NCBI GenBank assembly: GCA_036826375.1
Contig: DAISWL010000003.1
Coordinates: forward strand, 1 to 61,185
Source of the DNA: Candidatus Saccharimonadota bacterium
GTDB lineage: Bacteria > Patescibacteriota > Saccharimonadia > Saccharimonadales > HK-STAS-PATE-42
Length of the DNA: 61,185 nucleotides
Reading direction: 5' to 3'
The position numbers were made by a program, and so were the translations under genes. The notes under the pieces were generated by a model, which worked only from the letters and a program-made list of their open reading frames with translations, was not told where the DNA came from and searched no databases. Positions 377 through 61,071 of the stretch are shown here, one piece after another. Position 1 is the stretch's first letter. Each line of letters opens with the position of its first letter.

Positions 377-1858
377 TTAAACTCTAGTTTTTTTACTAAG
401 CTTAAGTTTAGATAGTACCGGTAAGCCTTTTTTATTATTAGGCTTTTTGTTGTTTTCGTCGAAGTCGTAAGTTTCCATTAGAGCCTTCGATTGAACCTGC
501 CTTAGAGTTTCGAGAGCTACCGATACCACAATCAATAATCCTGTTCCACTGATACTAAGTTGGCTAGTGCCTAGCATTTTTTCGGCAATAATAGGAATCA
601 TTGCTAAAATACCAAGACTAGTAGCCCCAAATAGATTCAGTCTATTGACAACAGCCTTAAGATGAACCTCGGTTCTTTCACCTGGCTGAACCCCAGATAC
701 AAATCCGCCCTGCTTTTGCAGGTTTTCGGCTATCTCTTTAGAGTTGAATACTATACCAGTATAAAAATAAGTGAAGACGACCACGAGTAAGAAATAGGCC
801 ACAGGGTATATCCACGCTTGGTATCCAGTTTTGGCTAGAAATTCTTGCGAACCAGGAGAAGCAAACCAATCGACTAAGTTTTTACCCAAATTGGCCATCC
901 AAGTAGTGGATGAATTTTCTATTAAACGCCCCGCGAATTGAGGCATAGATAAAAACGCAAAAGCAAAGATTATAGGTATAACTCCTGCTGAAATAAGCTT
1001 AATTGGTAGAATAGTAGTAATACCACCATAGGTTCTATTACCCTTAACTCTCTTGGCATAGTGTACTGTTACTATACGTTGAGCTTCGTTAAGCTTAACT
1101 AGACAGTAAGTTATTACTAGAGTAGCTATTAAAATAGCTATAGATATGTAAGTTGCCCTGGCATTCAATGGAAGTTGTTGCCCGAACAAAGATATCCTTG
1201 CCACTCCTTGAGAGTTAGAAATAGACGCTTCAATTAAACTGTATATAGTGCTAGGTAACCTAGAGACTATACCGGCAAATATTATTAAACTTATTCCATT
1301 ACCGACACCCTGCTCAGTGATTAACTCCCCCAGCCACATTAGTAGTATAGACGCTGCAACCATGGATACTATCATCAGAATCCACTGGGCGGGGCTGGCA
1401 TTTTTTGTTATATCTATACCAAGACTAGAGGCAACTGTTTGCTGACGTAGTATAAATATTAAGCCTACCGACTGGATTATCCCCAATGGTACGGTAAGAA
1501 TTCTGGTGTATTGATTGATCTTCTGCCTACCAGATTCCCCTTCCTGATTTAGTTCTTCTAGTCTAGGTACGGCCTTGGATAGTATCTGCATAATTATAGA
1601 GGCATTTATATATGGTCCTAGACCCATAATCATAATAGAAAAACTAGAAAGAGCCCCTCCCGAAAGTAGATCTAGAAATCCTAGAACCTGCTCCGAGCTA
1701 AAAGCACTAGAGACCAGTTGCTTAAGTTGTGTGGGTTCGGCTAGCGGTATCGGTATATGAGCCAAAAACCTATAAATAACCATTATAGATAGGACACTAA
1801 GCATAGCCGTGAACATCTTCTTACTCTTTAAAGATCTAAATATCAGCTTCCAATCCAT
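377..1858 (-). CDS. secY: Preprotein translocase subunit SecY
   Basis: Multi-TM protein with GLGPYINASIIMQ, GELITEQGVGNGISLIIFAGI, GTGLLIVVSV motifs; follows rplO. Confidence 0.98.
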   Translation of the reverse strand: MDWKLIFRSLKSKKMFTAMLSVLSIMVIYRFLAHIPIPLAEPTQLKQLVSSAFSSEQVLGFLDLLSGGALSSFSIMIMGLGPYINASIIMQILSKAVPRLEELNQEGESGRQKINQYTRILTVPLGIIQSVGLIFILRQQTVASSLGIDITKNASPAQWILMIVSMVAASILLMWLGELITEQGVGNGISLIIFAGIVSRLPSTIYSLIEASISNSQGVARISLFGQQLPLNARATYISIAILIATLVITYCLVKLNEAQRIVTVHYAKRVKGNRTYGGITTILPIKLISAGVIPIIFAFAFLSMPQFAGRLIENSSTTWMANLGKNLVDWFASPGSQEFLAKTGYQAWIYPVAYFLLVVVFTYFYTGIVFNSKEIAENLQKQGGFVSGVQPGERTEVHLKAVVNRLNLFGATSLGILAMIPIIAEKMLGTSQLSISGTGLLIVVSVALETLRQVQSKALMETYDFDENNKKPNNKKGLPVLSKLKLSKKTRV

Positions 1859-1952
1859 AAAACTAGATCAACCCCTTTTAAGTTTAATTTGTATTATTAT
1901 AGCACGTTGAAACTTGAATAGCTCTTCCTGCAATAACAAACTTGATTTTTAA

Positions 1953-2420
1953 TTAAGATTTATCTGCAGATTTTTCTCTTTTTAATCTTTCGACAATATC
2001 GATGTTGCCACCAGCATCCTCTATAGCCTTCCTAGCTCCTTCACTAGCGTGTTGAACTTTCAAGCTAAGAGCTTTCTGGGGGATTCCTTTCAGTATCAAT
2101 TTAACTTTTACATATGGGTTAGAAATTAGCCCCGCCTCTGCAAGAATAAAATTATCAATAACTTTAGCCTTAATAGATTCTAAACCGCCAGTGTATATAG
2201 TTTCGGCTTTAGGCTTAAAAGATTTAAAGCCTTTAGTTTTAGGTAGACGCTCCGCAAAAGATACCTGGCCGCCCTCAAAACCTATTCTTAACTTCTTCCC
2301 CGTTCTAGATTTCTGTCCTTTAGTTCCTCTCCCCGCTGTCTTACCCTTGCCAGCAGATATACCGCGACCAACCCTAGTATTCTTTTTATTGGATTTTCTT
2401 TCAATTTCGTTAATTTTCAT
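1953..2420 (-). CDS. rplO: 50S ribosomal protein L15
   Basis: RVGRGISAGKGKTAGRGTKGQKSR, GFEGGQ. Confidence 0.98.
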   Translation of the reverse strand: MKINEIERKSNKKNTRVGRGISAGKGKTAGRGTKGQKSRTGKKLRIGFEGGQVSFAERLPKTKGFKSFKPKAETIYTGGLESIKAKVIDNFILAEAGLISNPYVKVKLILKGIPQKALSLKVQHASEGARKAIEDAGGNIDIVERLKREKSADKS

Positions 2421-3169
2421 TATTTATCTCCCTCTTTTTTAGCGGTAGATTTTTTAACTGTAGGCTTTTTAGCTGGAGTTTTCTTGTTCACCGGAGCTTT
2501 TTTGGCTGCAGATTTCTTAGTAACTGCGGCTTTTTTAGCTATAACCGCTACCTCAGGCTTAACATTTATTTTCTTGGGTTTTGCCTTGTCGGCTTCTTTT
2601 TTTGCAGATACACCCTTAGCCGCGACAGAATTATTAAGCTTAAGAGCTTCAACGCGATGATCTTTCATCCATTTACTCTTAGGGACTAGGGATCTTAAGG
2701 CTGACATGGTTGCATAAGCTGTATTAATTTTATTAGATGAGCCTAACGACTTGCTTAATATATTATGTATACTGGTCAGATTTAATATTGATCTAACTGT
2801 GCCGCCGGCGATAATACCAGTACCTGGGGAGGCGGGCTTTAACATTATACGAGATCCCCCAACCTTACCTTCGGAATCATGAGGTATAGTTTGAGCATAA
2901 AGAGGAATATTGATCATATTCTTCTTGGCTACGGCCGTAGCCTTTACTACTGCTGCCTGAACATCGCCGCCCTTCGAAACACCTATGCCAACTTGCGTAG
3001 AGCCGTCTCCAACCGCGACTAAAGCTTGAAAGCGGAACCTTCTACCACCCTTAACAACTCTAGCTACCCTATTCAGAGATATTACAACTTCTTTAAACTC
3101 TGGTTGCTCAACAAAACCTTCACTAGTTGATGACTTCGCAGGATTAGATTTAAATTTAGTATCCGCCAT
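2420..3169 (-). CDS. rpsE: 30S ribosomal protein S5 with Lys/Ala-rich C-terminal tail
   Basis: RVARVVKGGRRFRF, PASPGTGIIAGG. Confidence 0.98.
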   Translation of the reverse strand: MADTKFKSNPAKSSTSEGFVEQPEFKEVVISLNRVARVVKGGRRFRFQALVAVGDGSTQVGIGVSKGGDVQAAVVKATAVAKKNMINIPLYAQTIPHDSEGKVGGSRIMLKPASPGTGIIAGGTVRSILNLTSIHNILSKSLGSSNKINTAYATMSALRSLVPKSKWMKDHRVEALKLNNSVAAKGVSAKKEADKAKPKKINVKPEVAVIAKKAAVTKKSAAKKAPVNKKTPAKKPTVKKSTAKKEGDK

Positions 3170-3171
3170 AA

Positions 3172-3525
3172 TTATACCTCTATACCTTCCTTTCTTAGAG
3201 CTTCAGCAAGAGCCTTAATTCTACCATGGTACTTTTTGCCATTTCTATCAATAACGAGCTTAGATATTTTAACTTTATTAAGCTTAGTTACTAAATCAGA
3301 GCCTAATTTGCTAGCCTGTTCGGTTAAAGGCTTATCTGACTTAAGACCAACCGTGGAAGCTGAAACCAAAGTTAGGCCCTTCTGGTCGTCTATAACTTGA
3401 CAATGTAGATGTCTATTGGAAACTCTAATACTCAAACGAGGTCGTTCTGCTGAGCCGGAAACTTTAGAGCGAACTCTACCCTTTCTTAGGCTCAGGTTGA
3501 CTTTTTTTAGTTCATTAGCCTTCAT
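3172..3525 (-). CDS. rplR: 50S ribosomal protein L18
   Basis: RPRLSIRVSNRH, DRNGKKYHGRIKALAEALR. Confidence 0.97.
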   Translation of the reverse strand: MKANELKKVNLSLRKGRVRSKVSGSAERPRLSIRVSNRHLHCQVIDDQKGLTLVSASTVGLKSDKPLTEQASKLGSDLVTKLNKVKISKLVIDRNGKKYHGRIKALAEALRKEGIEV

Positions 3526-4061
3526 TATTTAGAACCCGCCTTTCCTGCTTTTCGCAGTATTTGTTCATCTATATACTTTATTCCCTTGCCCTTGTATGGC
3601 TCGGGTTTTTTCAAAGCCCTAATCTCAGCAGCAACCTGACCAACTCTTTGTTTTGATATACCGCTTACTGAAATCTTATTCCTGTCTACAGAAACCTGAA
3701 TATCTTGAGGTACTTTATAGATAACGTCATGTGAAAAACCTAATGCAAACTTAATATTGGTACCTTGTATTTCAACCTTATATCCCACTCCGTTAAGCTC
3801 TAACTGCTTTTCGAACCCCTTAGTTACACCAATCACCATATTATTGACTAGTGAACGGATCAAACCGTGTTCAGATCTGGCCTTTTTAGTTTCATCTTTC
3901 CTCGCTACGCTGACGACGCCGTTATCTTGGCTTATAGTAACATTAGGCGATGACTGCTGGGTTAGTTCTCCCTTAGGGCCTTTGACGGTTATTATATGAC
4001 CGTCGACCGTGATTGTCACACCAGCTGGTATTTCAATTGGTAGTTTTCCGATACGACTCAT
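3525..4061 (-). CDS. rplF: 50S ribosomal protein L6
   Basis: MSRIGKLPI, PEPYKGKGI. Confidence 0.98.
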   Translation of the reverse strand: MSRIGKLPIEIPAGVTITVDGHIITVKGPKGELTQQSSPNVTISQDNGVVSVARKDETKKARSEHGLIRSLVNNMVIGVTKGFEKQLELNGVGYKVEIQGTNIKFALGFSHDVIYKVPQDIQVSVDRNKISVSGISKQRVGQVAAEIRALKKPEPYKGKGIKYIDEQILRKAGKAGSK

Positions 4062-4091
4062 TATTTTAATCCTTTCTTGTTTAAATATTAT

Positions 4092-4493
4092 CTAGTAAAT
4101 TTTGCAGATAATCTCTCCGCCAACTTGACTAGCTTTGGCGCTGACGCCATCTATTATCCCCTTTGAAGTAGATATTAGAACCATGCCTCTACCGTTTTTG
4201 ATAGTTGGGATATCTTTAGCTTGAACATAATAGCGTCTACCGGGTTTAGAAACTCTTTCGATGCTTGATATTCTCGGAGTTTGACCATCGGTATTTATTA
4301 CTATTTTAAGCTTATTCTGAGGCTTTTCCTCTATAACTTCAACTGAGGTTAGATATCCAGATTTAACAAGCTGCTCCGCAACCTTAACCTTAACTTTTGA
4401 GCTAGGTAGAATTATTTGTGTTTTACGAGCGTTGATAGCATTCCTAATTCTGGTTAGCATATCAGCGATGGGATCTGTTGATAATAATGACAT
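4092..4493 (-). CDS. rpsH: 30S ribosomal protein S8
   Basis: DPIADMLTRIRNA, SKPGRRYY, STSKGI. Confidence 0.98.
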   Translation of the reverse strand: MSLLSTDPIADMLTRIRNAINARKTQIILPSSKVKVKVAEQLVKSGYLTSVEVIEEKPQNKLKIVINTDGQTPRISSIERVSKPGRRYYVQAKDIPTIKNGRGMVLISTSKGIIDGVSAKASQVGGEIICKIY

Positions 4494-4520
4494 ATAAACT
4501 TACATAAACCTTTCTTGCTT

Positions 4521-4790
4521 TTACCAGCTTGATTTCTTAACTCCAGGTATTTGACCAACTGAAGCTCTTAATCTGAATTCTATCCTAGAGAGACCGAATC
4601 GACGCATATAACCTCTTGGCCTACCACTTTGAGCACATCTATTTTTATGACGACAAGGGCTTGAATTATTAGGCAGAAGCGCCAAGCCCTCTCTATCCCC
4701 TAAAGCCTTAAGCTCTGCTCTCTTGGCGGCATATTTTTCAATCATCTTTATTCTCTTCTTATCTCTAGCTATTATGGATTTCTTAGCCAT
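4521..4790 (-). CDS. rpsN: 30S ribosomal protein S14 (89 aa, zinc-independent type)
   Basis: [36 protein letters not shown]. Confidence 0.97.
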
Positions 4791-5381
4791 CTATTTTACT
4801 CCTTTCATAAAAGGCATGCCGAACTTAATAAGTAAGGCCTTATTCTGCTCACTAGAATCTGAACTCATGACAAATGTTATTTGTAAGCCGTGGGCCGTTG
4901 AAGTATCTTCAAAAGTTAGTTCCGGGAATACAGATTGTTCGGTTAAACCCACGTTATAGTTACCCGTTTTATCAAAAGATTTATTCGAGACCCCGTGAAA
5001 ATCTCTTACGCGTGGTAGAACCACCGATATAAATCTATCTAAGAATTCGTACATCCTGTTGCCACGCAAAGTAACTTTCAGCCCAACTTTGTTTAAGCCT
5101 CGACGAATTTTAAAGCTGGCTATAGATTTTTTGGCCCAAAGCTCAACTGGTTTCTGACCAGTTATCTTAGCTAGAGTATTTGTTGCTACCTCAACTTTGC
5201 GCTTATCGTCTTTGAACTTACCAGTCCCAATACTAACAACTATTTTCTCTAGTTTAGGAACTTGATTAACATTAGATAAAGCTAATTCGTCTTTAAGCTC
5301 TTTTTTGAATTCTAATAAGTACTGAGCTTTTAGGCGTGGCACCATTTTTGAGTTAGTAGCACTAGCATCTTTCTTAGCCAT
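4791..5381 (-). CDS. rplE: 50S ribosomal protein L5
   Basis: VPKLEKIVV, KKSIASFKIR, VTLRGNRMYEFL, PRVRDFHG. Confidence 0.98.
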   Translation of the reverse strand: MAKKDASATNSKMVPRLKAQYLLEFKKELKDELALSNVNQVPKLEKIVVSIGTGKFKDDKRKVEVATNTLAKITGQKPVELWAKKSIASFKIRRGLNKVGLKVTLRGNRMYEFLDRFISVVLPRVRDFHGVSNKSFDKTGNYNVGLTEQSVFPELTFEDTSTAHGLQITFVMSSDSSEQNKALLIKFGMPFMKGVK

Positions 5382-5701
5382 TAGTTTATCTCCTTGCCGT
5401 TAGTTTTTGTGACTCTGGATTTCTTGCCATCCTTGATTTGATAGCCAATTCTAGAAGTTTTACCTGTACTTTCGTCTACCAAGAACTGCACTTTTGATAT
5501 ATCTATCGGCTTGTTCATCTCTTTGATAGATCCTGTAGATTGGCCGTAGCCTGGTTTGACGTGTTTCTTAATGATATTAACACCCTCTACTACAACCTGG
5601 GCCTTGGCTGGTAGAATTTGCAATATTTTACCTATCGCACCTTTTTCGGCACCACTTATAACCTTAACTTTATCTCCTAATTTAAGCTTAATTGCTGACA
5701 T
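5381..5701 (-). CDS. rplX: 50S ribosomal protein L24
   Basis: KOW motif GDKVKVISGAEKG, VVVEGVN. Confidence 0.97.
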   Translation of the reverse strand: MSAIKLKLGDKVKVISGAEKGAIGKILQILPAKAQVVVEGVNIIKKHVKPGYGQSTGSIKEMNKPIDISKVQFLVDESTGKTSRIGYQIKDGKKSRVTKTNGKEIN

Positions 5702-5702
5702 C

Positions 5703-6071
5703 TTAGAGTACCTCCGGTGCTAGTGAAATTATTTTAGCATAACCCCTATCTCTAAGCTCTCTAGGGATAGGACCGAAAACTCTGGTTGCCTTCGGCATCT
5801 TATCATCACCGATAATAACTGCAGCATTCTCATCGAAAGATATTGTTGATCCATCTGGGCGTTGTATCTTGTTTTTAGTTCTAACTATTACGGCCTTGAC
5901 TACGCTCTTTCTTTTTACGCTTCCTGTCGGATTAGCAGTTTTAACACTGGCGACTATAGTATCTCCCACTCTCGCGTATCTACGACGAGTTCCACCTAGA
6001 ACTCTAATGCAGAGTATAGTTTTTGCACCGCTATTATCTGCTACCTTAAGCATTGACTCTTGTTGTATCAT
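5703..6071 (-). CDS. rplN: 50S ribosomal protein L14
   Basis: [25 protein letters not shown]. Confidence 0.99.
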
Positions 6072-6352
6072 AGTTGAGCCTCCTCTGCGCCAGTTATTAA
6101 ATCTTCGGCTGAAACTGGTCTATCTACAATCTTTACTAGCGACCATTTCTTTGTCTTGCTAATTGGGCGGACTTCTTGGAAATCGACAATATCACCCTTT
6201 TTAGATTGATTCTCCTCATCGTGGACTTGGAATTTTTTAGATGTAGTGTAGGCTTTATTATAAAGAGGATGTCTAACTCTTCTATCAACCCTTACTACGA
6301 TAGTTTTACTCTGACTATCTGAAACTACTTTCCCTTGTAAAATTTTCGACAT
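6068..6352 (-). CDS. rpsQ: 30S ribosomal protein S17
   Basis: [20 protein letters not shown]. Confidence 0.97.
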
Positions 6353-6585
6353 TACTCTTTGCCTCCTTGCTTGGAATCAACTTCCTCCGTCATAGATTCT
6401 TTAACAACGCTTAGTGTTCTAGCTAGTGATCTTTTTAAACCGTTAAGCTCTTTAGAGTTTTTTAACTCGTTAGCCTTAAGTTTAACTTCAGTCGCTAATA
6501 TTTTAGACCTTAAATCTAAAGAAGCAATCTCTAATTCCCTTTTGGCCATAGAGCGATATTTTTTCAATTCATCTAGCCTTTTCAT
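6352..6585 (-). CDS. rpmC: 50S ribosomal protein L29
   Basis: Position between rplP and rpsQ; small helical protein with LKRSLARTL. Confidence 0.85.
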   Translation of the reverse strand: MKRLDELKKYRSMAKRELEIASLDLRSKILATEVKLKANELKNSKELNGLKRSLARTLSVVKESMTEEVDSKQGGKE

Positions 6586-6998
6586 TAGCCTTGCTCCTTT
6601 ATGATAAATTTGGTTTTAACTGGTAACTTATGGGCAGCTAAGCGCATGGCCTCTCTTGCGATGTCTTCATTTACACCATTCATTTCAAAAAGCATTGTTC
6701 CATCCTTAACTCTAGCTATGAAGTGGTCTGGAGATCCCTTACCCTTGCCCATCTTAACATCATGAGGTTTTCTGGTTACTACTATATGAGGGAAGATCCT
6801 AATCCAAATTTTTCCGCCACGTTTTACATATCTAGTCATAGCACGACGGGCAGCCTCAATTTGACGAGATGTTATCCTCTCATTACCCTTACTCTGCAGT
6901 CCATACTCCCCGAATGATACCTCGTTAGCCTTAGATGCTACGCCCTTATTTTTACCTTTGAATTCTCTGCGATATTTAGTTTTTTTCGGTAAAAGCAT
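6585..6998 (-). CDS. rplP: 50S ribosomal protein L16
   Basis: [30 protein letters not shown]. Confidence 0.98.
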
Positions 6999-7628
6999 TT
7001 ACGCCTCCCCCTTATAGATCCAAACCTTAACACCGATGGTACCGGCTTGGGTTTTAGCTGTAGCTTGATGATAATCAATATCTGAACGAAGTGTATGAAG
7101 AGGCACCGAGCCTTGGCTCTCCTTTTCTCGTCTCGCCATTTCTGCTCCATTTAAACGTCCGCCAAGCTCAATCTTAACGCCTTTAGCACCAGCACGCATA
7201 GTCGAGCTAGCTGCAAACTTCATAGCTCTCCTAAACGGTATTCTTCTTTGTAGCTGACTGGCTATATTTTCGGATACCAGTTTAGCATTTAAATCTGCTC
7301 TTTTAATTTCTAATATGTTAATTCTAACATTTTTGGTATCGAATATCTGATTTAAGCGCGATACCATTTCTTGAGAGCCAGATCCACCACGACCGATTAC
7401 TACGCCAGGCTTTGATGTATGAACGGTAATCAATATCTCACCGCCAGATCTTTCGATACGCACATCTCCTATAATTGAACCATTTACATATCTAGATTCT
7501 ATGTACTTTCTAGCTTCAATATCTTGATTCAAAAAAGATGCAAAATCTCTTTTATTTACAAACCACTTAGATTTCCAATCTTTAGTGACTTGTAACCTCA
7601 TACTGATTGGATTAACTTTCTGACCCAT
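6999..7628 (-). CDS. rpsC: 30S ribosomal protein S3
   Basis: MGQKVNP, GRLNGAEMAR, VPLHTLR, GVKVWI. Confidence 0.98.
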   Translation of the reverse strand: MGQKVNPISMRLQVTKDWKSKWFVNKRDFASFLNQDIEARKYIESRYVNGSIIGDVRIERSGGEILITVHTSKPGVVIGRGGSGSQEMVSRLNQIFDTKNVRINILEIKRADLNAKLVSENIASQLQRRIPFRRAMKFAASSTMRAGAKGVKIELGGRLNGAEMARREKESQGSVPLHTLRSDIDYHQATAKTQAGTIGVKVWIYKGEA

Positions 7629-8119
7629 TACTTGCTCTCCTTTGCTACCTTCTTGGTGCTGGTTTTAACTTTTGTAGTTCGCTTAGGGTCAGATTTAAGG
7701 TTGGCATCTTTTGGTTTAGACGGTGCATCTACTACCTTTTTATTGGAAGATGAGTTGGCTTTAAGTTGACCGCTGACTACTACATAGATATTGGATGTTC
7801 GGTGCATATATGGGTGAGCGGAGCCTCTGGCAATAGGGCGGAATCTCTTATACCTAACGCCAGGACCAACCTGTATAGAACTGATTACCAACGCCTTTTC
7901 TTCTATGCCGTGATTATTAGTAGCATTAGCCGCCGCTGAGGATATTAGCTTATGTATAGATTCGGCAGCTCTTCTTGGAGTATGATTCAAGATTGTTAGA
8001 GCATCACTAACACTTCTACCCCTAACTAGAGCAGCTACTTCACCGGTTTTGCGTGGAGATATCCTTAAGCCAATAGCGCTAGCCTTAGCAGTGTTTAGAT
8101 TTAATGATTTAGCCGCCAT
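7628..8119 (-). CDS. rplV: 50S ribosomal protein L22 with basic C-terminal extension
   Basis: RISPRK, RFRPIARG, RTSNI. Confidence 0.97.
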   Translation of the reverse strand: MAAKSLNLNTAKASAIGLRISPRKTGEVAALVRGRSVSDALTILNHTPRRAAESIHKLISSAAANATNNHGIEEKALVISSIQVGPGVRYKRFRPIARGSAHPYMHRTSNIYVVVSGQLKANSSSNKKVVDAPSKPKDANLKSDPKRTTKVKTSTKKVAKESK

Positions 8120-8385
8120 TACTTCTTATCCTTTCCGCCATGTTTTCTAAACTTACGTGTAGGAGAGAATTCTCCTAGTTTATGTCCAACCATATTTTCA
8201 GTTATAAATACCGGAATATGTAGCTTTCCATTATGGACAGCTATAGTTCTTCCAACCATTTCTGGTGATATCGTACTAGAACGAGCCCAAGTTTTAATTA
8301 CAGTCCTATCTTCCTTGGCTAAAGCTGAAACCTTCTTTTGTAGTTTAGGGTCTATAAAAGGACCTTTTTTTAGAGATCTACTCAT
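8119..8385 (-). CDS. rpsS: 30S ribosomal protein S19
   Basis: [22 protein letters not shown]. Confidence 0.99.
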
Positions 8386-53111: not shown

Positions 53112-54287
53112 CTACTTTTTGAGGCTTTCAATATATTTTCGGATGTTAAGAGCAGCTGTTGCGCCCTCACCAGCAGCGGATGCAATCTGCATGGTGGCAC
53201 CCGAGCGGACATCTCCGCTAGCGAAAACCCCTGGGATGTTAGTCATTAAGCTTAAATCGGTATCAACAAACCCGTATTCATCTAACTTCACATCTGTGTA
53301 TTTTAAGAACTTAGTGTTAGGATCCAAACCAATAAAAATAAAAGTACCGTCGACGTCAAACTTGATACTCTTAGAGCCTTGCGTTCCATCAATATGAGTA
53401 ACTTTAGATCCATCACCAACAATCTCTTTGATGCTAACATTTTTATGCACGGTTATTTTTCCTGCTTCAACGGCTTTGTTCAATTCTTTAATTAGCACCT
53501 CGCTAGCCTTTATTTCACTTCTAACTAATAAGTTTATGTGGCTGGCAAATCTGGTTAAGAATAGTGCCTCTTGCACAGCGGAATTGCCTCCGCCAATAAC
53601 TGCTAAAACTTTATCTCGGTAGAAGGCTCCGTCGCAAGTAGCACAGTAGTGTACTCCACGTGATAAATATTCTTCCTCGCCTGGCACTCCTAGTTTTTTA
53701 TAAGATGAACCCGTTGAAATTAAAACTGCTTTAGCCTCAATATCACCTTCGGTGGTTGAAACTTGAATTCTATCCCCTTGTTTTTGGATGTCCACCACTT
53801 CACCGAAATCTATTTTGGCCCCGAAACGCTCCGCCTGTTTTTCTAGTTTGTCGGCGAAATCTATGCCGGTTACCCCATCTTCAAAACCTGGATAATTATC
53901 TATCTGATCGGTGATAGCAGCTAAGCCACCAATTGCTCCCTTTTCAATAATTAAAGTTTTAAGATCTTCACGAGAAGTGTAAATCGCGGAGCTAAGCCCG
54001 CTGGGGCCTCCACCTATAATCAGCACATCTACCTTTTTAGCTATTTCTATTTTTAAGTTTAATAGACTAGCCATTTTTTGATGTGATGGATTTTGGTAAA
54101 CTTGCCCATCAATTACAACCGTTGGGATCAAATAATTTTGGTTGCTTAAGTTTAACATTTCGGCAACGATTTCTTCTCCGTCATCGACATCTTTATAAAC
54201 AAAACTCTGGTTTGCATCGGTGAGAAATTTTTTTAAAGATTGGCAATAAGCGCACCAAGTGGCTCCGTACAAGATAACTTCTGACAT
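53112..54287 (-). CDS. trxB: Thioredoxin reductase with N-terminal glutaredoxin/NrdH-like domain
   Basis: WCAYC N-terminal domain; IIGGGPSG, YCATCDG, IGGGNSA, FASGDV. Confidence 0.93.
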   Translation of the reverse strand: MSEVILYGATWCAYCQSLKKFLTDANQSFVYKDVDDGEEIVAEMLNLSNQNYLIPTVVIDGQVYQNPSHQKMASLLNLKIEIAKKVDVLIIGGGPSGLSSAIYTSREDLKTLIIEKGAIGGLAAITDQIDNYPGFEDGVTGIDFADKLEKQAERFGAKIDFGEVVDIQKQGDRIQVSTTEGDIEAKAVLISTGSSYKKLGVPGEEEYLSRGVHYCATCDGAFYRDKVLAVIGGGNSAVQEALFLTRFASHINLLVRSEIKASEVLIKELNKAVEAGKITVHKNVSIKEIVGDGSKVTHIDGTQGSKSIKFDVDGTFIFIGLDPNTKFLKYTDVKLDEYGFVDTDLSLMTNIPGVFASGDVRSGATMQIASAAGEGATAALNIRKYIESLKK

Positions 54288-54332
54288 TTAATTTATTGCC
54301 TCCTTATGACCTATAGTGATTAAAAACTTACT

Positions 54333-54584
54333 TTAACTTAAAAGAGAACTAAGTTGAGCGGGATTGTAGCCTACTGAAAAACCTTTAACTGAACCGTCAT
54401 CGTCGCTGACTGCTATTACCGGAACGGTCATCGCACCGCCGCTGATAGAGATAGCCTCTTGCCTTAAGTTTGGATCTTGATCAACGTTGAGCTCTTGGTA
54501 ATCTCTACCTTTAATTTGCAAAAACTTTTTGACCATTCGACAAGCTGAACAATTATTACTAGTGTAAACTTTAATCTGCGACAT
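54333..54584 (-). CDS. Glutaredoxin/NrdH-like protein
   Basis: VYTSNNCSACRMVK, TVPVI. Confidence 0.88.
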   Translation of the reverse strand: MSQIKVYTSNNCSACRMVKKFLQIKGRDYQELNVDQDPNLRQEAISISGGAMTVPVIAVSDDDGSVKGFSVGYNPAQLSSLLS

Positions 54585-54690
54585 TTTAATTACCCTCTTT
54601 TATTAATTTTAATATTTTTTGAAAGATGTATTTACATTATATAGTGTTTAAGCTTAAGCTTCAAGCGCTATATATTGTGTATTTTACAAA

Positions 54691-55485
54691 TTACTGCGCC
54701 TGAGCTGTTGAAGGATTAACTTCCAAGAGCTCAACTCTAAATACCAGATTAGAATTTGCTGGTATTGAGGCATTGGCTTGGCTGCCATAAGCTTTATCTG
54801 ATGGTATTCTCAAGACCCTAGTTCCCCCTACTTTCATGCCGGGTATACCTTCTTGCCAGCCGGCGATAACAGAACCTAAGCTTAAGTCTATTCCCTGATC
54901 GTTTTGATCAAAAACTTCGCCACTAGATGCTAGAGCGCCTTTATATTTAACCTTGATTGTATCTCCAGCCTTGACTTCTGTTCCATCGCCAGTTTTTTCA
55001 TCAACAATCTGTAATGAATCCATAGCGTCAGAGTACTTGAGAGATTCGTCATATTCTTTTGGCTTATTAGCTGCCTCTTCTTGAGCTTTCTTAACAGCTT
55101 CTTCGTACTGTTTATTATAGTCTTCCTGTTGCTGCTTTTGCTGCTTTGAATCACGGTCGCTCATCCAGGCAGCTATAATTGGCCCTCCTACAAAAAAGAA
55201 TATTGTAGCCGTAATCGCTAGCCACTTAAAACCAAACCTTAAAGCGTGCCCAATTTGAGCTAAATTTATGTTTTTAGGCATACTATAACTAAATTTATTT
55301 ATTTTCTTTGGTTGAGATGATTTAGATTTAGTTTTTAAGCTAGAGCCGTCTTTTTTATTTTTAAGCAGAGTTGAATTAGGTGAACTTGAGTTGAAATTAT
55401 CTTTATTTGTTTTAGCTTTAGCGACAACCTTGTTTGACTTAGTGCTCTTAGCACCTTTTGATGCGGCCATTAGAATACCCTCCAA
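54691..55485 (-). CDS. Membrane-anchored FKBP-type peptidyl-prolyl isomerase
   Basis: VIAGWQEGIPGMKVGG, IPSDKAYG, LVFRVEL. Confidence 0.93.
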   Translation of the reverse strand: MEGILMAASKGAKSTKSNKVVAKAKTNKDNFNSSSPNSTLLKNKKDGSSLKTKSKSSQPKKINKFSYSMPKNINLAQIGHALRFGFKWLAITATIFFFVGGPIIAAWMSDRDSKQQKQQQEDYNKQYEEAVKKAQEEAANKPKEYDESLKYSDAMDSLQIVDEKTGDGTEVKAGDTIKVKYKGALASSGEVFDQNDQGIDLSLGSVIAGWQEGIPGMKVGGTRVLRIPSDKAYGSQANASIPANSNLVFRVELLEVNPSTAQAQ

Positions 55486-55518
55486 ATTTAATTTAATTGA
55501 TTTAGCTTATTATAACCT

Positions 55519-56172
55519 TTATTTGACTTGGCGCTCAAGCTTATTTTCAATTTTTAACTTTTTAATTAAGTTATTGACCGAATCGACCACCATCCCCGGG
55601 TTGACTCGCTCCAAACTAGAAGCTGAGTTAAGACCCCATGCAACGGATATGCATTTAATTTTTATCTGATTACAAGAATTAACATCTTTGATTTCATCGC
55701 CAATATAAATAATCTCATTTTTATTTATATTAAGCTTAGATATTATTTTTTCTAGACCCTTAGATTTGGAGAAGAAACCGAGCCTCCCCCAAGTTTCAGT
55801 AAAATACTTATCGATGCGATTATTCTTTAAAAAAGCATCCACAACCAATTTGCTATTAGAGCTAGCCACATACATTTTGATGTTGTTGGATTTTAAATAT
55901 ATAAGAACGGTTTCGATCCCTTGAATCGGCTCTAGCTGGTTGCGTCTAGATTTAATCTGCCTTCTAGCCTTCAAAATATAGTAGACTAGCTCCAACCTAC
56001 TAAGACCTAAAGTCTTTACAGCCTGGCGAGGGTCTTTATCTGTATAATCCTGTAGGTTTTTCTTAGAGAAGTTATCTGGTAGTTTCCTTTTCATGACAGT
56101 CATGAAAACATCCTCAAGCATATCCCTACTATCGGCCAAGGTTCCATCTAAATCAAAAATTACTATTGGCAT
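55519..56172 (-). CDS. HAD family phosphatase
   Basis: IFDLDGTLADS, SSN, YIGDEIKD. Confidence 0.93.
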   Translation of the reverse strand: MPIVIFDLDGTLADSRDMLEDVFMTVMKRKLPDNFSKKNLQDYTDKDPRQAVKTLGLSRLELVYYILKARRQIKSRRNQLEPIQGIETVLIYLKSNNIKMYVASSNSKLVVDAFLKNNRIDKYFTETWGRLGFFSKSKGLEKIISKLNINKNEIIYIGDEIKDVNSCNQIKIKCISVAWGLNSASSLERVNPGMVVDSVNNLIKKLKIENKLERQVK

Positions 56173-56268
56173 ATGTATGTTTACATTATACTAAACTTAA
56201 CTTAGAATGGGGGGCTATTTTATACAGAACGCTAAAGATGGTTAAACATGGGCCTTAGATAGAAACCA

Positions 56269-56304
56269 AAAGAGTCTGAATATTTTTTTCTATTCAGACT
56301 CTTT
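56269..56304 (-). terminator. Intrinsic terminator
   Basis: Perfect 14 bp stem AAAGAGTCTGAATA/TATTCAGACTCTTT, T-rich tail on minus strand. Confidence 0.75.
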
Positions 56305-56339
56305 ATTTAAGCAAGCAAACTTAGGTTAATTGGTTAGTA

Positions 56340-56996
56340 TTACTTATTCCCGCTTTTGCTATTAGAGACGGCTTTATATACAAGTGTAACTATCAGCCCG
56401 GCTAAGATTAGTTTAGCCCAGTTTCTAGATATCCAACTTCCCTTATCAGAACTAGTTGACTCATTCTGCTGCTCAGAATCTTGGTTGCTTGAACTACTAT
56501 TCGAATTATCATCTTCATTTTTAGACTCATCTTTATTGGATTCACCACTATCCTTGGCATCTTGTACCTGCTTGTTAACTTGAACGTTGGTTTTAGAACC
56601 GTCGATAATAGCCTGTATTGAAGTAGTGTCGGCGTACTTCTGCCAAGCAGCCTGTTGAGAAGGCGTGAGACTTTTAGAGCTACCGATGTAATCTTTAAGT
56701 TTAGCTTTGCTAACATGAACATCTTGATTAACGTCTAGCCAATAGGCGCCCATATCATTAACAGTATTGGTTTCGGCGTATATCCTTTGAGCAGCGTTTA
56801 GATCTTCACCGTTATCATTACAATAGCGGTTAATAGAATCGCGTACTACATAACTAAGGTTATCCCCTCCAGATGCAACATAGTCATAAGTTCCCGCAGA
56901 CTGCTGCTCCTGAGCATGGACGCTAGGTCCACCAAGTATAAAAGTAGCCGCGATCATGATAACTGCGCTACTTACTAGTATTTTTAGATTTTTCAT
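56340..56996 (-). CDS. Secreted/membrane-anchored hypothetical protein
   Basis: Signal peptide, YDYVASGGDNLS domain, S/N/D/E-rich linker, C-terminal TM. Confidence 0.7.
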   Translation of the reverse strand: MKNLKILVSSAVIMIAATFILGGPSVHAQEQQSAGTYDYVASGGDNLSYVVRDSINRYCNDNGEDLNAAQRIYAETNTVNDMGAYWLDVNQDVHVSKAKLKDYIGSSKSLTPSQQAAWQKYADTTSIQAIIDGSKTNVQVNKQVQDAKDSGESNKDESKNEDDNSNSSSSNQDSEQQNESTSSDKGSWISRNWAKLILAGLIVTLVYKAVSNSKSGNK

Positions 56997-57111
56997 ATTT
57001 TTGAGTGAACCCTCCTCTATTAAAAGAAAATGCCCACCAAAATTGATATATAGTATTAACTATAATACTGTTTAAGCTTAAAATAAGATATTGTAGATTT
57101 AGCTACGAAAT

Positions 57112-57798
57112 TTAATTATCTATATTTAGAGTAATCTGATAAAGAGCTATGCCGGCTGCGACGCTAACATTAAATGATTCTTTCTTGCCCCTCATCGGAA
57201 TCTCAATCTTAATATCAGCTAGAGCAAGCTCTTCACTATTAAACCCTGTTGCCTCTGGGCCCAAAAAGAGAGCAAGCTTGCCGTGCTTAGGCTTGAACCT
57301 GTCTAGCATTTCAGAAGTTTTAGTTTGCTCAAGAAAAACTAAATCAAAACCCCTCCCTTTGAGACTATCGGCTGCAGAAGTTAGATCTGCAAAATAGTAA
57401 GTTGTAATGTTCTTCTCGGCACCAAGAGCCGTTTTAGCTATACCGCTAGCAAGCTTAATCTTAATGTGTGGCAGACGTTGGTCTCCTTTTATCTCCGGAT
57501 AAGGGGTTGACCCTATAGCAATAAACTCTTTTATACCGAAGCCATCGCAAGTTCTCAAAATAGACCCTACGTTATATATACTCCGCAAATTAACAGCCGC
57601 CACTACAACCTCTAGGTTTGATCCTTCTGAATTTGATCCATAATATGATGGCAAGTTTGCATCTATTTTAGATGAAGAGCTGGGAGCCCCATCATCATCA
57701 GAATCATCGGCTAGTGCTTTACCTGAAAAACGTTTTGTTGGCAAAACTGAACTTGAACTTTGTGATAATTTATTAGATTTTAATTTATTGTAGACCAA
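57112..57798 (-). CDS. TrmH/SpoU family RNA methyltransferase (start uncertain)
   Basis: NLRSIYNVGSILRT, LGPEATG, IPMRGKKESFNVSVAAGI. Confidence 0.92.
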   Translation of the reverse strand: MVYNKLKSNKLSQSSSSVLPTKRFSGKALADDSDDDGAPSSSSKIDANLPSYYGSNSEGSNLEVVVAAVNLRSIYNVGSILRTCDGFGIKEFIAIGSTPYPEIKGDQRLPHIKIKLASGIAKTALGAEKNITTYYFADLTSAADSLKGRGFDLVFLEQTKTSEMLDRFKPKHGKLALFLGPEATGFNSEELALADIKIEIPMRGKKESFNVSVAAGIALYQITLNIDN

Positions 57799-57815
57799 TT
57801 CAAATCACTCCGGGC

Positions 57816-59585
57816 CTATTCTGACTCTAACTTAAAGTATGGGATCTTACTTAGATAATCTTGAATATCTATTGCCGAATTATCTCCTATCGAAGATATC
57901 TTATACCTACTGACTAAGCTTATGGATTGAATATAAAGAGGCTTAGCGGGAGCAACAGATGCCCAGGTTTGGCTAAACTTAAGTAGAGCTTGTTGTTTCT
58001 GGGTTTGGTCTGAGTAATTTTTGAAAGCAAATATTAGGCCTTCTATTCTGGAATCATTAAGATTGGAGAAGTTAAGATCTTTATTTGGTTGATCTGAAGA
58101 CCAATAGGTTTTAATATCCGGTTTGATTCCCATATCTATACTATTGATTAATATGTCGTAATTATGAGAAATATAATATTCTTCTTTAAAATCTTGAGGA
58201 CTAATTAGGCTTAGGTCTATAGTTATTCCAAGGTTCCTGAGCTGATCTACTAGTAAGTTAGCGGTTTTGGTGCTAATTTGATCATCAAGGGCTACTATTC
58301 TAAATCTCAACGTAGCATTACTGTCTGATTTAACTAAACTACCGTTATTGTTTTTATAGCCTAGTTGGTCGAACAACTTAGCGGCTTCCTCTTTGTTGAA
58401 CCCTAGCGAGCCACCATCCTGAGATTGAGAAAGTTGATATTTATTGAAGAGACTAGCGTTATCTACGCGTTTGACCTGGCTTGATATATCCTTTTCGTTA
58501 ATAGAATAAGCTAAAGCCTTCCTTAGGTTGGGATCCGTAATTCTGGTTGTATTGAAGAAGACATATACCTGTCCGGGGGTTTGATAAAAGTATTGATTAG
58601 CAGGAGTATCAACATCCAGACTGTCTAATTGAGGAGTGGCGCTAATGAAGCCATTATTAAAATTATCTATAAGCTTCTTCTTGCTATCAACAAATCTTAG
58701 ATTAACCCTCCTATTGGTAACCTTATCATAATTTGCATAATTACTATTTGCACCGAGTTTAACCTCTAAGCCACCATCAATAATATTGAGACCTTGGTAT
58801 AAATAGGGACCTCCATATATTTCGGCACCAGATTGAACCACTGAACCGTTGTTAATATCATAGTTATGTTTTGGCGCGAGGATGACCTGACTTAAATGCT
58901 TGTAGAAATTTATATTTGGCTCGGATAAGTTAATACTTATCTCACTATCGTCAACTTTCGTTACAGTAGCCCCCTTGAAAGACTGATAGCCGTCCTTAGT
59001 TGAACTGCTTTTTATAAATTGGTTCAAACTGAATGATAAATCTTCGACATCTACGTTTTTGCCATCACTCCATTTCAGCTGGTTCTTATACTTTAAACTA
59101 TAAGTTTTACCATCTTCCTTAGGTATGATATCTAGGATCAAAGACTCATAAGTACCTTGGTGGTTTTGCTTGGTTAGTGGTAAAAAAAGTAAGTTCAGTA
59201 AAATCTGATTAGCTCCGGTTGCATCCGTTTTAAGAGGATCGATATCTATATTCAACTCTTTAAAATAATAACCTTCTGTATAGATTCTAGGAACATTCTT
59301 ACCCGGCAAGAAGAATATAGCCCCAAATGAAGCTAAAGCAACGAATAATAATACTACGTGCTTAGAACTAAGCACTCTGGCCAGCTTTGCTAGAAATGGG
59401 TGCAAGGTTTTATTGCTAATTGGAAGCTGCTTATTCTCAACAGAACTTGTGGCAGAAACTATTCCATTCCCGGCAACTTGATTCTCTATTTTTTCATTCA
59501 GCTTAGCGTGCCCACTAAGTTTATTTGAAATATCTTTGAGCTTATTAGTTAGCTTTGGTTTAGTTTTAAGATTATTGTTACTCAT
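57816..59585 (-). CDS. Family 5 (OppA/DppA-like) solute-binding protein
   Basis: LKWSDGK, GGPY, FFNT..DPNLRKAL, NFSNLND..I. Confidence 0.8.
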   Translation of the reverse strand: MSNNNLKTKPKLTNKLKDISNKLSGHAKLNEKIENQVAGNGIVSATSSVENKQLPISNKTLHPFLAKLARVLSSKHVVLLFVALASFGAIFFLPGKNVPRIYTEGYYFKELNIDIDPLKTDATGANQILLNLLFLPLTKQNHQGTYESLILDIIPKEDGKTYSLKYKNQLKWSDGKNVDVEDLSFSLNQFIKSSSTKDGYQSFKGATVTKVDDSEISINLSEPNINFYKHLSQVILAPKHNYDINNGSVVQSGAEIYGGPYLYQGLNIIDGGLEVKLGANSNYANYDKVTNRRVNLRFVDSKKKLIDNFNNGFISATPQLDSLDVDTPANQYFYQTPGQVYVFFNTTRITDPNLRKALAYSINEKDISSQVKRVDNASLFNKYQLSQSQDGGSLGFNKEEAAKLFDQLGYKNNNGSLVKSDSNATLRFRIVALDDQISTKTANLLVDQLRNLGITIDLSLISPQDFKEEYYISHNYDILINSIDMGIKPDIKTYWSSDQPNKDLNFSNLNDSRIEGLIFAFKNYSDQTQKQQALLKFSQTWASVAPAKPLYIQSISLVSRYKISSIGDNSAIDIQDYLSKIPYFKLESE

Positions 59586-59620
59586 TCGCTAGCCACTAAT
59601 AATACTATTAAATATAGAAT

Positions 59621-59842
59621 CTACGCCCCCGCAATAGATACTATTATTGATCCGACAAATACTATTGCCAGGACTATGGTTATTTGCATCATAGTCTTAT
59701 CTGCTCCGCGACGAGTAGTGTAGAGCTCAGACGACGACCCAAAACCAGCACCTAAACTTGCCCCTCTAGTCTGAGCTAGAATAAAGATCACCATTAAAAC
59801 ACCGCTTACGATCGTGAACCATTCTAAAATTGTTAATCCCAT
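59621..59842 (-). CDS. secG: Preprotein translocase subunit SecG
   Basis: ILAQTRGASLGAGFG, TRRGADK, two TM segments. Confidence 0.93.
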   Translation of the reverse strand: MGLTILEWFTIVSGVLMVIFILAQTRGASLGAGFGSSSELYTTRRGADKTMMQITIVLAIVFVGSIIVSIAGA

Positions 59843-59881
59843 AATGTTTTTATCAAACTCCTTAACGTTAATTCTTAGAAA

Positions 59882-60259
59882 TCATTCTTGTGATCCAGAA
59901 TTTTTACCGAACCATTTTCTATCTACTAGATAGTTTACCAAACCTACAGCCAATCCGGCAAGGATGCTATACCAAAAACCGTTGACATTGAAGCCTGGTG
60001 TTATTTTATCTGTTAAATAGATTACGAAAGCATTGATTAGAGCGAAGAAGACACCAAAACTTATTGCTATCACAGGTAGACTGACCACTACGATTATAGG
60101 TCTTAGCGTGTTATATATAACAGTCATCACTAAACTTGCAACCGCTAAGCTTAGTAGACCATGGTAACTAATGCTATCCTTAAAAGTAAAACTAAGTATA
60201 ATTAGACTTATAAAAGTAAATGTGACCCTTTGACTTAATCTTTTTAAACCGTTTCTCAT
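59882..60259 (-). CDS. 4-TM phage-holin-family (YvlD/DUF360-like) membrane protein
   Basis: LRPIIVVVSLP..TFG-like ISFGVFFALINA, GFNVNGFWYSI. Confidence 0.8.
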   Translation of the reverse strand: MRNGLKRLSQRVTFTFISLIILSFTFKDSISYHGLLSLAVASLVMTVIYNTLRPIIVVVSLPVIAISFGVFFALINAFVIYLTDKITPGFNVNGFWYSILAGLAVGLVNYLVDRKWFGKNSGSQE

Positions 60260-60405
60260 TGCAATTCCACTAAAATTTTAAATTATTATTTATTTGTTGT
60301 GATTTAGGTTTAATTTAAACCGTAATACTTAATATTATTTACTATTGTATCAGTTTTGTTTATAATTAGCTATGTTCCTGAAGCTTGTAGCAGACGATGA
60401 GCTAT

Positions 60406-60482
60406 CGGGGTGTGGCGCAGTTGGCTAGCGCGCGCGGTTTGGGACCGCGAGGTCGAAGGTTCGAGTCCTTTCACCCCGACCA
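60406..60482 (+). tRNA. tRNA-Pro (TGG)
   Basis: Acceptor CGGGGTG/CACCCCG, anticodon loop TTTGGGA, GTTCGAG T-loop, encoded CCA. Confidence 0.97.
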
Positions 60483-60488
60483 AGAAAT

Positions 60489-61071
60489 ATGATTATGGAA
60501 TCTTCCCCTTATCCACCCAACCCAGAAGAAATGACACCTTTAGAGAAACTTAAAAGTGCCGTGAACGACCATCATGAATCTTTTTTAAAACTAGTCCCTA
60601 ATTTCGATAGAAATATTTGGCTGCCTTATGAGGCTCTATCTAGCAGGGGGGGGGAGCTGTGCGGCTGAAGCTTTTTTTGTAGCTCATAAGCTTTTAGAGT
60701 CTAAAGCTGTGGCAATTGAAGATTTAAGTTTAGGCGTATTTAGGGATCATGGCGAACTAGTTAGAGCAGGTTTCATAGGTTCAGAAAAGCCAATCTCTGG
60801 GCATGCAATACTTTTTGTAACACTTGATAATCAGACTTACGAATTTAACTTCAGGATGAATAGAGCGGACGATGATCCTAGCATTGAATCGGTCTCCAAA
60901 GATTCGCTGAGTGAAGATCGACTCAAATGGGTGGAGCCTATTAACGAGGCTCTATCCAGATACGGCACAGAGTTATTAGATAACAGGGGGTGTGGGTCAA
61001 CAATACAGGCGTGCACTACCGACCCCAAGAACGAATACGCTATCCCCTTGATTATTAATTCAGATTTCTAA
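60489..61071 (+). pseudogene. Hypothetical Cys-His enzyme gene frameshifted at a G9 tract (60646-60654)
   Basis: Upstream frame (ATG 60489/60495) stops at 60666-60668; deleting one G joins it to the 60628-61071 frame. Confidence 0.65.

Follow-up and report, generated by a model that had tools for sequence, protein, structure and literature searches.

What keeps an eight-nucleotide word recurring every few hundred base pairs along a bacterial chromosome, inside conserved genes as well as between them? The question is raised by contig DAISWL010000003.1 (GenBank assembly GCA_036826375.1) of a Candidatus Saccharimonadota bacterium, whose whole analysed stretch of 61,185 bp (38.9% G+C) is called the window here. 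A sequence-only reading of this DNA had described a degenerate palindrome, TAARYTTA, iterated from 397 to 60730 in the manner of the cyanobacterial highly iterated palindrome (HIP1) and the DNA uptake sequences (DUS), and had proposed that some system maintains it and that it marks resident DNA. The word proves to be TAAGYTTA, read on either strand. That it is hyper-abundant, clade-specific and maintained at the level of DNA is close to certain; what it does is a matter of graded likelihood, and we tentatively prefer the view that it may serve as a self-DNA tag.

TAARYTTA occurs 171 times in the window, compared with 17.8 ± 4.1 (maximum 29) in 100 dinucleotide-preserving shuffles. The total divides into 61 copies of the palindrome TAAGCTTA, 52 and 44 copies of the non-palindromic forms TAAGTTTA and TAAACTTA, and 14 copies of the doubly substituted palindrome TAAATTTA. 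When all 8-mers and 10-mers were ranked without prior choice against an order-3 Markov model, TAAGCTTA, TAAGTTTA/TAAACTTA and the palindromic extension TTAAGCTTAA (29 sites where about 1 is expected) stood at the top by a wide margin, TAAGCTTA being 11-fold over the unmasked model at 1.0 per kb, or about 1000 per Mb. Against an order-3 background with the sites masked, the excess rises to 27-fold for TAAGCTTA and is 14-fold for TAAGTTTA/TAAACTTA; all remaining one-mismatch neighbours pooled reach about 1.4-fold, mild excesses being seen for transition neighbours only (TAGGCTTA/TAAGCCTA 4.3-fold, TAAGTCTA 4.1-fold, TAAATTTA 2.3-fold). In coding sequences TAAATTTA was found 10 times, against 11.1 in synonymous shuffles, and it was therefore rejected as a member of the set: because it stays at background, the word is TAAGYTTA and not TAARYTTA, and the set of TAAGCTTA, TAAGTTTA and TAAACTTA is exactly 5'-TAAGYTTA-3' on either strand. 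The sequence-only reading was thus right about the hyper-abundance and wrong about the R, which should be G. Its label of palindrome applies when Y is C, while the non-palindromic form, which is equally conserved, makes up 96 of the 157 family sites (61%). Every one of its nine uvrA and seven iscS coordinates is correct, and the word does repeat through the window, although the array begins earlier than it stated, with sites at 224 and 291; the last lies at 60725-60732, and the mean spacing is 388 bp.

The limits of the word are sharp. A logo of the window sites shows T at −1 (74%) and A or G at +1, giving TTAAGYTTAR as the usual form, and essentially no information beyond ±1, so that a piece of a longer repeat was rejected. 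Since no conservation extends past these positions, the word is not a miniature inverted-repeat transposable element or repetitive extragenic palindrome; the conserved flanks or hairpin and the intergenic placement of such elements are missing, and 139 of the 171 TAARYTTA copies (81%) lie fully within open reading frames (ORFs). The inner hexamer was likewise rejected as the true unit. Although 61 of 91 AAGCTT fall in the T...A context, AAGCTT outside that context occurs 58 times against 74.8 expected (both strands), and because it is at expectation without those flanks, the full 8-mer is the unit; nor does AAGCTT behave as the selected or avoided 6-bp target of a type II restriction-modification enzyme pair. 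Codon choice tells the same story. In the context T-AAR-TTT-A, lysine is written AAG 23 times and AAA 6 times, though AAG accounts for only 36% of lysine codons overall, while in T-AAR-CTT-A both are frequent (AAG 33, AAA 26), and 72% of all Lys-CTT dicodons sit in the T...A context.

The excess is not a product of codon or amino-acid bias, which was rejected by three models. With proteins kept and synonymous codons shuffled, coding sequences hold 51 copies of TAAGCTTA against 5.6 ± 2.3 and 78 of TAAGTTTA plus TAAACTTA against 15.6 ± 3.5; shuffling codon order leaves 2.4 and 6.6 expected, respectively. Even a first-order codon Markov (dicodon) model, deliberately over-conservative since it already includes the word's own codon pairs, leaves an excess of 2.6- to 4.6-fold. 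Frame 0 is impossible because TAA is a stop, and both stop-free frames are occupied (88 sites as xxT AAR YTT Axx, 51 as xTA ARY TTA). Non-coding DNA is richer still, with 32 TAARYTTA in 6.4 kb, or 5 per kb against 2.5 per kb in coding DNA. The asymmetric form lies 38 times sense and 40 times antisense to the coding strand, and 52 and 44 times on the two DNA strands (13:9, 18:13 and 21:22 in successive thirds of the window), while GC skew is negative throughout. Strand balance and the higher non-coding density together indicate a signal in double-stranded DNA that is neither RNA nor peptide, and not polar. Two of the outcomes that the sequence-only reading had named as fatal to its claim, disappearance under codon- or dicodon-preserving models and confinement to a single frame, did not occur.

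Codon alignments of 17 orthologous genes were made between the window and relative L096, which is 74.6% identical in nucleotides. Of 39 window sites, 20 are matched in L096 by a family member at exactly the same position, 11 of these by the identical 8-mer. Control 8-mers drawn from the two frames that the sites use show identity in 9.9%, and 14.9% are preserved when a lenient rule accepts transitions at the inner two bases while the outer six must be identical, so that the excess at sites has P=1e-3 by the identical rule and P=1e-7 by the lenient one. In the more distant L098 (67.8% identity), 8 of 15 sites are kept against 8.9% of controls (P=1e-5). If only places with unchanged overlapping amino acids are considered, identity is 50% for sites and 17% for controls, and synonymous positions are therefore also held. 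Three of six alignable intergenic sites are kept despite diverging flanks. Within the species (1.45% divergence), none of the 48 window sites in the compared stretch has been lost, and word columns differ at 1 of 390 positions against 1.45% elsewhere. Orthologous positions are kept well above controls, so something maintains them, as had been proposed; the retention is 3-5 times that of controls across about 25-32% nucleotide divergence.

Maintenance of position is accompanied by turnover, about half of the sites being private to each lineage. The palindrome and its variants interconvert freely between lineages (for example AAG<->AAA and AGC<->AGT) and are retained equally in L096, 8 of 15 for the palindromic and 12 of 24 for the variant form. 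With L098 as a third taxon, about five sites were informative by eye for palindrome-to-variant changes, and these run in both directions.

The word is restricted to one lineage. The best UvrA relatives among the matches listed, one genome per bacterial species, belong to the Saccharimonadales (Saccharibacteria, members of the candidate phyla radiation, or CPR) at 65-68% identity, and the word was seen in none of the 25 Saccharibacteria uvrA loci or the 55 more distant loci among those matches. Exact-protein look-ups found the same species, with a nucleotide identity of 98.6-100%, in numerous independent assemblies from Logan, ENA and JGI; because the same sites recur there, an assembly or cloning artefact is excluded. 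Relatives with 95-96% IscS identity (L091-L095; 38-39% G+C) carry 0.7-0.9 copies of TAAGCTTA and 1.7-2.3 of the variants per kb, those at 73% (L096-L097; 38% G+C) carry 0.95-0.97 and 1.5-1.6, and those at 66% (L098-L099; 38-44% G+C) carry 1.7-2.0 and 1.4-3.3, whereas two relatives at about 55% (L106, L107; 52-53% G+C) have neither form, nor any alternative outstanding 8-mer. A RadA-based scan of a metagenome collection yielded relatives of at most 56% identity only, and the 63 RadA loci lacked the word. Outgroups as AT-rich as the window also lack it. The word, present at IscS identities of at least 66% and absent at about 55% and in the 25 other Saccharibacteria loci, is thus a shared derived character of one low-GC (38%) Saccharimonadales clade. 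Comparison with related genomes, which the sequence-only reading had recommended, therefore agrees with the codon models and the word-free outgroups in bearing out its proposal of a lineage-specific, DNA-level signature of HIP1 or uptake signal sequence (USS) type.

Proteins have paid for it. In UvrA, all nine sites coincide with an amino-acid replacement relative to 16 word-free Saccharibacteria UvrA sequences: LEL, present in 12 of the 16 outgroups, has become LSL, VTVH has become VKFN, and DRLI has become AKLI. The effect extends to the proteome of the window, where LSL occurs 2.0 times per 1000 residues (outgroups 0.4-0.9), LNL 1.8 times (0.25-0.46), KLK 1.9 times (0.3-0.46) and KF 4.5 times (1.4-2.8), the outgroups including equally AT-rich genomes; LSL, LNL and KLK are 4-7 times as frequent as in outgroups. 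The suspicion that the motif biases proteins toward KLK, LSL and LNL was thus well founded. In IscS, five of the seven sites lie at the same codon positions in the relative with 66% IscS identity. Site counts are lowest in the most conserved genes, those of the ribosomal-protein operon. In the core genome the word is kept at about 2.6 copies per kb against mutation and protein preference.

The claim that the word marks resident DNA stands on other strains better than on the window. The NADAR-domain gene and the two genes of the cassette-like insert next to uvrA do lack sites, as had been noted, but per-gene counts across the window fit a Poisson distribution (chi-square p=0.22), so these absences are not significant alone. 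Low counts do not by themselves mark foreign DNA either, because the resident, conserved ribosomal-protein operon is also poor, and the VanY and beta-lactamase-like genes are resident with few sites, since they are syntenic in all clade relatives. The proposal that word-free genes of the window are foreign was accordingly set aside as not demonstrable within it. Accessory islands of sibling strains and of a relative are, in contrast, empty: no site occurs in a 5.2-kb conjugative island resembling a type IV secretion system (GC 45%), in 4.4 kb of the gene for a giant surface protein (GC 43%), or in a 1.9-kb R.PabI-type restriction-modification island of relative L098 (GC 28-31%), while adjoining core DNA holds 2.1-2.9 sites per kb. 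Composition does not explain this, because some of the islands are GC-richer and some GC-poorer than the core. Insertion sequence (IS) and integrase genes hold about 1 site per kb.

Several of these elements merit description. The NADAR gene product has 418 amino acids and a C-terminal NADAR domain, its otherwise unassigned N-terminal half having been called a PRTase by the sequence-only reading. The cassette carries HAD-like (17955-18344) and cytidine/dCMP-deaminase (18696-19253) genes, 102-nt direct repeats at 17772-17873 and 18595-18696 that are 96% identical, further repeats of 23-24 nt, and 20-nt inverted repeats; in L091 and L096, DUF2200 and epimerase genes occupy its position. In sibling strain L105, positions 1-6200 form a conjugative-element-like block beside the tRNA-Pro end of the window region, with genes for VirB4/DUF87, a CHAP peptidase, a TraG-like coupling protein, a helix-turn-helix (HTH) protein and an Mrr-like nuclease; the block is 45% G+C, has no copy in its first 5157 bp and a single one at 6066, in the HTH/Mrr part. 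An IS of about 1.2 kb (Transposase_mut family), with terminal inverted repeats of about 30 bp (GAGTAATACGACA...CGTGGAGGTTTTTAAC), lies in sibling contigs (L100:8385-9600, L103:5900-7300, L104:5000-6300), just past the window's left end and at two or more other loci, and its copies are not identical, a minority of the aligned positions varying among them. A pattern search for the IS ends among metagenome contigs gave no match.

Coordinates of the word array and of features of the window to which individual sites relate
Feature	Position	Strand	Sites or context	Basis
Array of TAAGYTTA, either strand	224..60732		157 copies	counts, Markov and codon/dicodon models
Chained overlapping copies (TAAGCTTAAGTTTA)	397..410			sequence
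Further chained copies	35464-35477, 39844-39857, 50807-50820			sequence
Ribosomal-protein operon	1953..10774	-	10 sites, 1.1/kb vs 2.8/kb elsewhere	
Two TAAGCTTA upstream of rplC	11145..11180		28 bp apart; second followed by ATG on minus strand	sequence
NADAR-domain gene	13503..14759	-	0 sites in 1.26 kb vs ~3.2 expected	
Nine uvrA sites	14925..17270	-	14925, 15331, 15862, 16116, 16258, 16428, 16651, 16987, 17263	alignment
TAAGCTTA between extended -10 box and uvrA start	17695..17702	-	GTGCTATAAT-TAAGCTTA-ATG	direct reading
Cassette-like insert between uvrA and nitroreductase gene	17757-19410		one site in 1.6 kb	
iscS and flanks	27627..28823	-	densest large gene, ~7 sites/kb	
VanY and beta-lactamase-like genes	30860..32384		one site in 1.5 kb	
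Intergenic site abutting -35 box of HTH-murA	34974..34981		-35 box TTGACT	sequence
TAATTAAGCTTAATG after TGTTATAAT, upstream of thrS	48595..48602	-	heads 19-codon ORF (MNYFIATKLKFNSITTLRG)	sequence

A small minority of sites occupy promoters. The 15-mer TAATTAAGCTTAATG is common to three copies, and in two of them TAAGCTTA comes directly after an extended −10 box (TGCTATAAT or TGTTATAAT), with ATG next; in those two predicted promoters the word spans the distance from the −10 box to a leaderless-type start. The leaderless-looking ORF MNYFIATKLKFNSITTLRG (48534-48608, minus strand) begins 8 nt past TGTTATAAT and lies upstream of thrS by about 60 nt; it contains three threonine codons and may encode a leader peptide that senses threonine. 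The site at the −35 box of HTH-murA is kept as TAAGCTTA in L096 (73% IscS) despite diverged flanks. A chained pattern such as TAAGCTTAAGCTTA was not encountered in 128 kb of clade DNA.

Other observations concern the genes around the sites. Between the RsmD-like gene and rplC, where rpsJ (S10) is usual, lies a 412-bp gap (10775-11185) with no called gene and no Rfam family match. MurA (EPSP_synthase fold, 35018-36547) has an N-terminal Xre-type HTH domain, a fusion conserved in clade relatives. The MurT-like Mur ligase gene (39626-40945, minus strand), which adjoins a GatD-like amidotransferase gene at 38847-39629, contains one in-frame TAG at 40550-40552 (...LELDEA*AKQF...) that could signal decay to a pseudogene, a nonsense mutation particular to this strain or an error in sequencing. 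A 141-aa ORF at 22264-22689 (minus strand) has by eye a pilin-like N-terminus (G-YTAFE, then a hydrophobic helix); its neighbours are unannotated genes of 421 and 572 aa and ftsA, and none of the three unannotated products has a usable match in PDB sequences, Pfam or NCBIfam. Finally, when 19441-38559 is compared with L081, L085, L091, L094 and L095, blocks of 100% identity abut blocks of 88-97%, and in L091 the nitroreductase/ArsR segment matches the window at only 68%, its ortholog identities to the window equalling those of the L096 lineage. This mosaic pattern suggests either that homologous recombination is frequent or that the metagenome contigs are chimeric.

What, then, would maintain the word? 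The reading that we favour, although we would not yet back it at even odds, is that TAAGYTTA may be a self-DNA tag of USS, DUS or HIP1 type for natural transformation. A sequence-specific protein would read the 8-10 bp word on double-stranded DNA during transformation, either at uptake or at a stage that immediately precedes recombination, and perhaps only if the word carries methylation, binding TTAAGCTTAA and TTAAGTTTAG, but not TTAAATTTAA. Conspecific DNA would thereby be preferentially imported or recombined, so that alleles carrying the word would spread and alleles without it would be replaced, which would explain both its accumulation and its positional conservation. We favour this reading because all of the population-genetic properties known for USS and DUS are present here, because the non-palindromic majority form suits asymmetric reading by a protein better than it suits a symmetric methylase site, because the strains are mosaics of identical and 88-97% blocks, and because Saccharibacteria are experimentally competent, being naturally transformable through ComEC (PMC10633639). 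HIP1, which in form is the nearest analogue, is reported to raise transformation up to 100-fold in a methylation-dependent manner and has been proposed as an uptake signal (bioRxiv 10.1101/2024.09.10.611283, 10.64898/2026.06.24.733823).

Several points weigh against the tag. No reader or writer gene and no identifiable DNA-uptake receptor was found in the window, and competence has been shown in other Saccharibacteria, not in the clade that bears the word. Classical USS and DUS are non-palindromic 9-12-mers, often arranged as inverted pairs in terminators, while the commonest form here is a palindrome and only two close intergenic pairs occur. Positional conservation and absence from foreign DNA are equally expected of any selected chromosomal site, and the mosaic identity could partly reflect chimeric metagenome assemblies.

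The alternatives differ in how much of this evidence they can accommodate. The word might instead be the target of an orphan methyltransferase acting on the AAGCTT or AGCT within it, with an internal role in mismatch-repair strand discrimination, replication timing or epigenetic control and no part in uptake, a role that is reportedly Elhai's model for HIP1. The commonest form is indeed a perfect 8-10 bp palindrome with HindIII and AluI sites, HIP1 co-occurs with CGATCG and GATC methyltransferases (PMC4390886), and spacing in the window is slightly more even than random (coefficient of variation 0.85, P=0.02; 7 gaps of 10-50 bp against 14.9 expected), as if one site per stretch mattered. We nevertheless consider this explanation unlikely: the 61% of sites that are TAAGTTTA or TAAACTTA contain neither AAGCTT nor AGCT and yet are 14-fold enriched and equally retained, AAGCTT is not enriched without its T...A flanks, the even spacing is not reproduced in three other clade loci, and the 61-kb window contains no DNA methyltransferase, restriction enzyme or restriction-modification genes, its only methyltransferases being RsmD and a SpoU-type RNA enzyme.

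The word could also be bound by an abundant protein that is specific to the clade and associates with the nucleoid or organises the chromosome, a reading said to be favoured for HIP1 by Xu et al. Such a protein would account for a signal that is DNA-level, orientation-independent, evenly scattered, conserved in position and absent from new DNA, and for the several intergenic copies at fixed promoter places, either in the interval from the −10 box to ATG or immediately next to the −35 box. Known nucleoid proteins, however, recognise degenerate or structural motifs, not an 8-mer that is specified at every base and present thousands of times; most copies here are intragenic with no positional logic, and no candidate protein was found, which together leave this reading rather improbable. 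We judge it distinctly improbable that the word is a functionless by-product of a bias in mutation or repair that favours certain sequences, for instance through very-short-patch-like repair or biased gene conversion. The mild excess of its transition neighbours (2.3- to 4.3-fold) and the frequent interconversion of the palindrome with its C->T and G->A variants between lineages are what such a bias would leave, but all eight positions are kept and not just the central C/G, orthologous retention exceeds controls 3-5-fold at the divergence given above, resident islands remain unconverted (IS about 1 per kb, conjugative and restriction-modification islands 0), and the price paid in amino acids indicates a strong directional force.

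A polar recombination or segregation signal like Chi or the FtsK-orienting polar sequences (KOPS) is very improbable and largely refuted: although the word is an over-represented 8-mer in a window rich in recombination and repair genes (uvrA, radA, rmuC, ruvX, ung), and a Chi-like role has been raised for HIP1, the 52:44 distribution shows no strand skew despite the uniformly negative GC skew, and the commonest form, being its own reverse complement, cannot carry polarity. A bias in codons, dipeptides or composition, a dispersed repeat, or an artefact of assembly or cloning, suggested at most by the common peptides (KL, LSL) that the word encodes in an AT-rich, Lys-rich genome, is refuted and has next to no chance of being correct, since the excess survives the codon models, captures 72% of Lys-CTT in T...A and is found in non-coding DNA, the flanks are bare, the sites recur in independent assemblies, and equally AT-rich outgroups lack the word.

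Returning to the self-DNA tag, it is possible, though short of probable, that TAAGYTTA would be the first DNA uptake or self-recognition sequence in the CPR, perhaps read in methylated form. If so, a competent Saccharibacteria clade, by selectively importing or recombining DNA of its own kind, would keep its recombining gene pool separate from host DNA. The Saccharibacteria in culture live on Actinobacteria, a group with generally GC-rich DNA, and because of this an AT-rich word should be very rare in host DNA. A full-text literature search found, among the papers it covered, none linking Saccharibacteria, Patescibacteria or the CPR with uptake sequences or such a word, and when the word itself was searched, the 15 top-ranked papers contained nothing but unrelated lists of primers and sequences. 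The function can be tested by comparing uptake or transformation with and without the word, because Saccharibacteria are naturally transformable, and if it promotes uptake or recombination, adding it to constructs could improve CPR genetic tools, as has been reported for HIP1 in Synechococcus. Because the core carries about 2.6 copies per kb and three accessory islands of 1.9-5.2 kb carry none, the word is also a sensitive marker for binning contigs of the clade and for flagging acquired islands. Whatever its function, UvrA, with replacements at nine of nine sites, demonstrates that a constraint at the DNA level can strongly rewrite the proteins of a reduced genome.

By form, TAAGYTTA belongs to the hyper-abundant genomic words, of which very few clear, selectively maintained cases are known (USS, DUS and HIP1), and it adds one from the CPR. 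HIP1 is GCGATCGC, the highly iterated palindrome of cyanobacteria, and the resemblance is considerable: an octamer found about once per kb, in tens-of-fold excess and often extended to a 10-mer palindrome, which lies inside genes in several frames as well as between them, is conserved above control motifs and is restricted to a lineage with exceptions among relatives (PMC4390886, PMC5861425). The abundance of TAAGCTTA falls within the range of this class (about 300-2700 copies per Mb, tens of fold over Markov expectation), and its sites, like those of the class, are conserved above controls within and between ORFs. Palindromy, essential in that class, is dispensable here, given the 96 variants among 157 sites and the background level of TAAATTTA. 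The fourth and fifth positions of HIP1 are its least variable (PMC4390886), whereas TAAGYTTA tolerates variation only at position 5 (4 when the other strand is read), and it is this variation that makes the majority form non-palindromic. TAAGYTTA is, moreover, unrelated in sequence, AT-rich, and barred from one reading frame by the TAA on both its strands; its host belongs to the CPR; and HIP1 proper is distributed periodically, with periods of 10-90 kb, and has cognate CGATCG and GATC orphan methyltransferases, none of which is present in the window. The word is not HIP1, because the sequence differs, because variation is central where HIP1 is most constant, and because it has no known cognate methylase.

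Chi and KOPS are likewise over-represented core-genome 8-mers read on DNA, but they are strongly skewed with respect to replication, while TAAGYTTA is unskewed and largely self-complementary. In Campylobacter jejuni, transformation depends on methylation of RAATTY by CtsM, a methylation-dependent form of self-recognition; that mark resembles ours as a short, AT-rich, palindromic word with central purine/pyrimidine degeneracy, and differs from it in being a 6-mer whose abundance follows from composition and which discriminates through the methyl group. USS of the Pasteurellaceae and DUS of the Neisseriaceae occur about once per kb, equally on both strands and mostly within genes, where they affect peptide composition; they form clade "dialects", are rare in recently acquired DNA and keep their positions between related species. 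They are, on the other hand, 9-12 nt long, non-palindromic and present as many inverted terminator pairs, whereas the window has only two close intergenic pairs (11145/11173 and 48561/48595), neither resembling a G+C-rich terminator; and preferential uptake and a receptor (the pilin ComP for DUS) have been demonstrated for USS and DUS. The family described here is also denser, at 2.6 per kb. Each of the genomic properties listed first for USS and DUS was nevertheless found for TAAGYTTA, a hyper-abundant, strand-balanced, clade-specific core word that is rare in foreign DNA and whose host phylum is naturally transformable.

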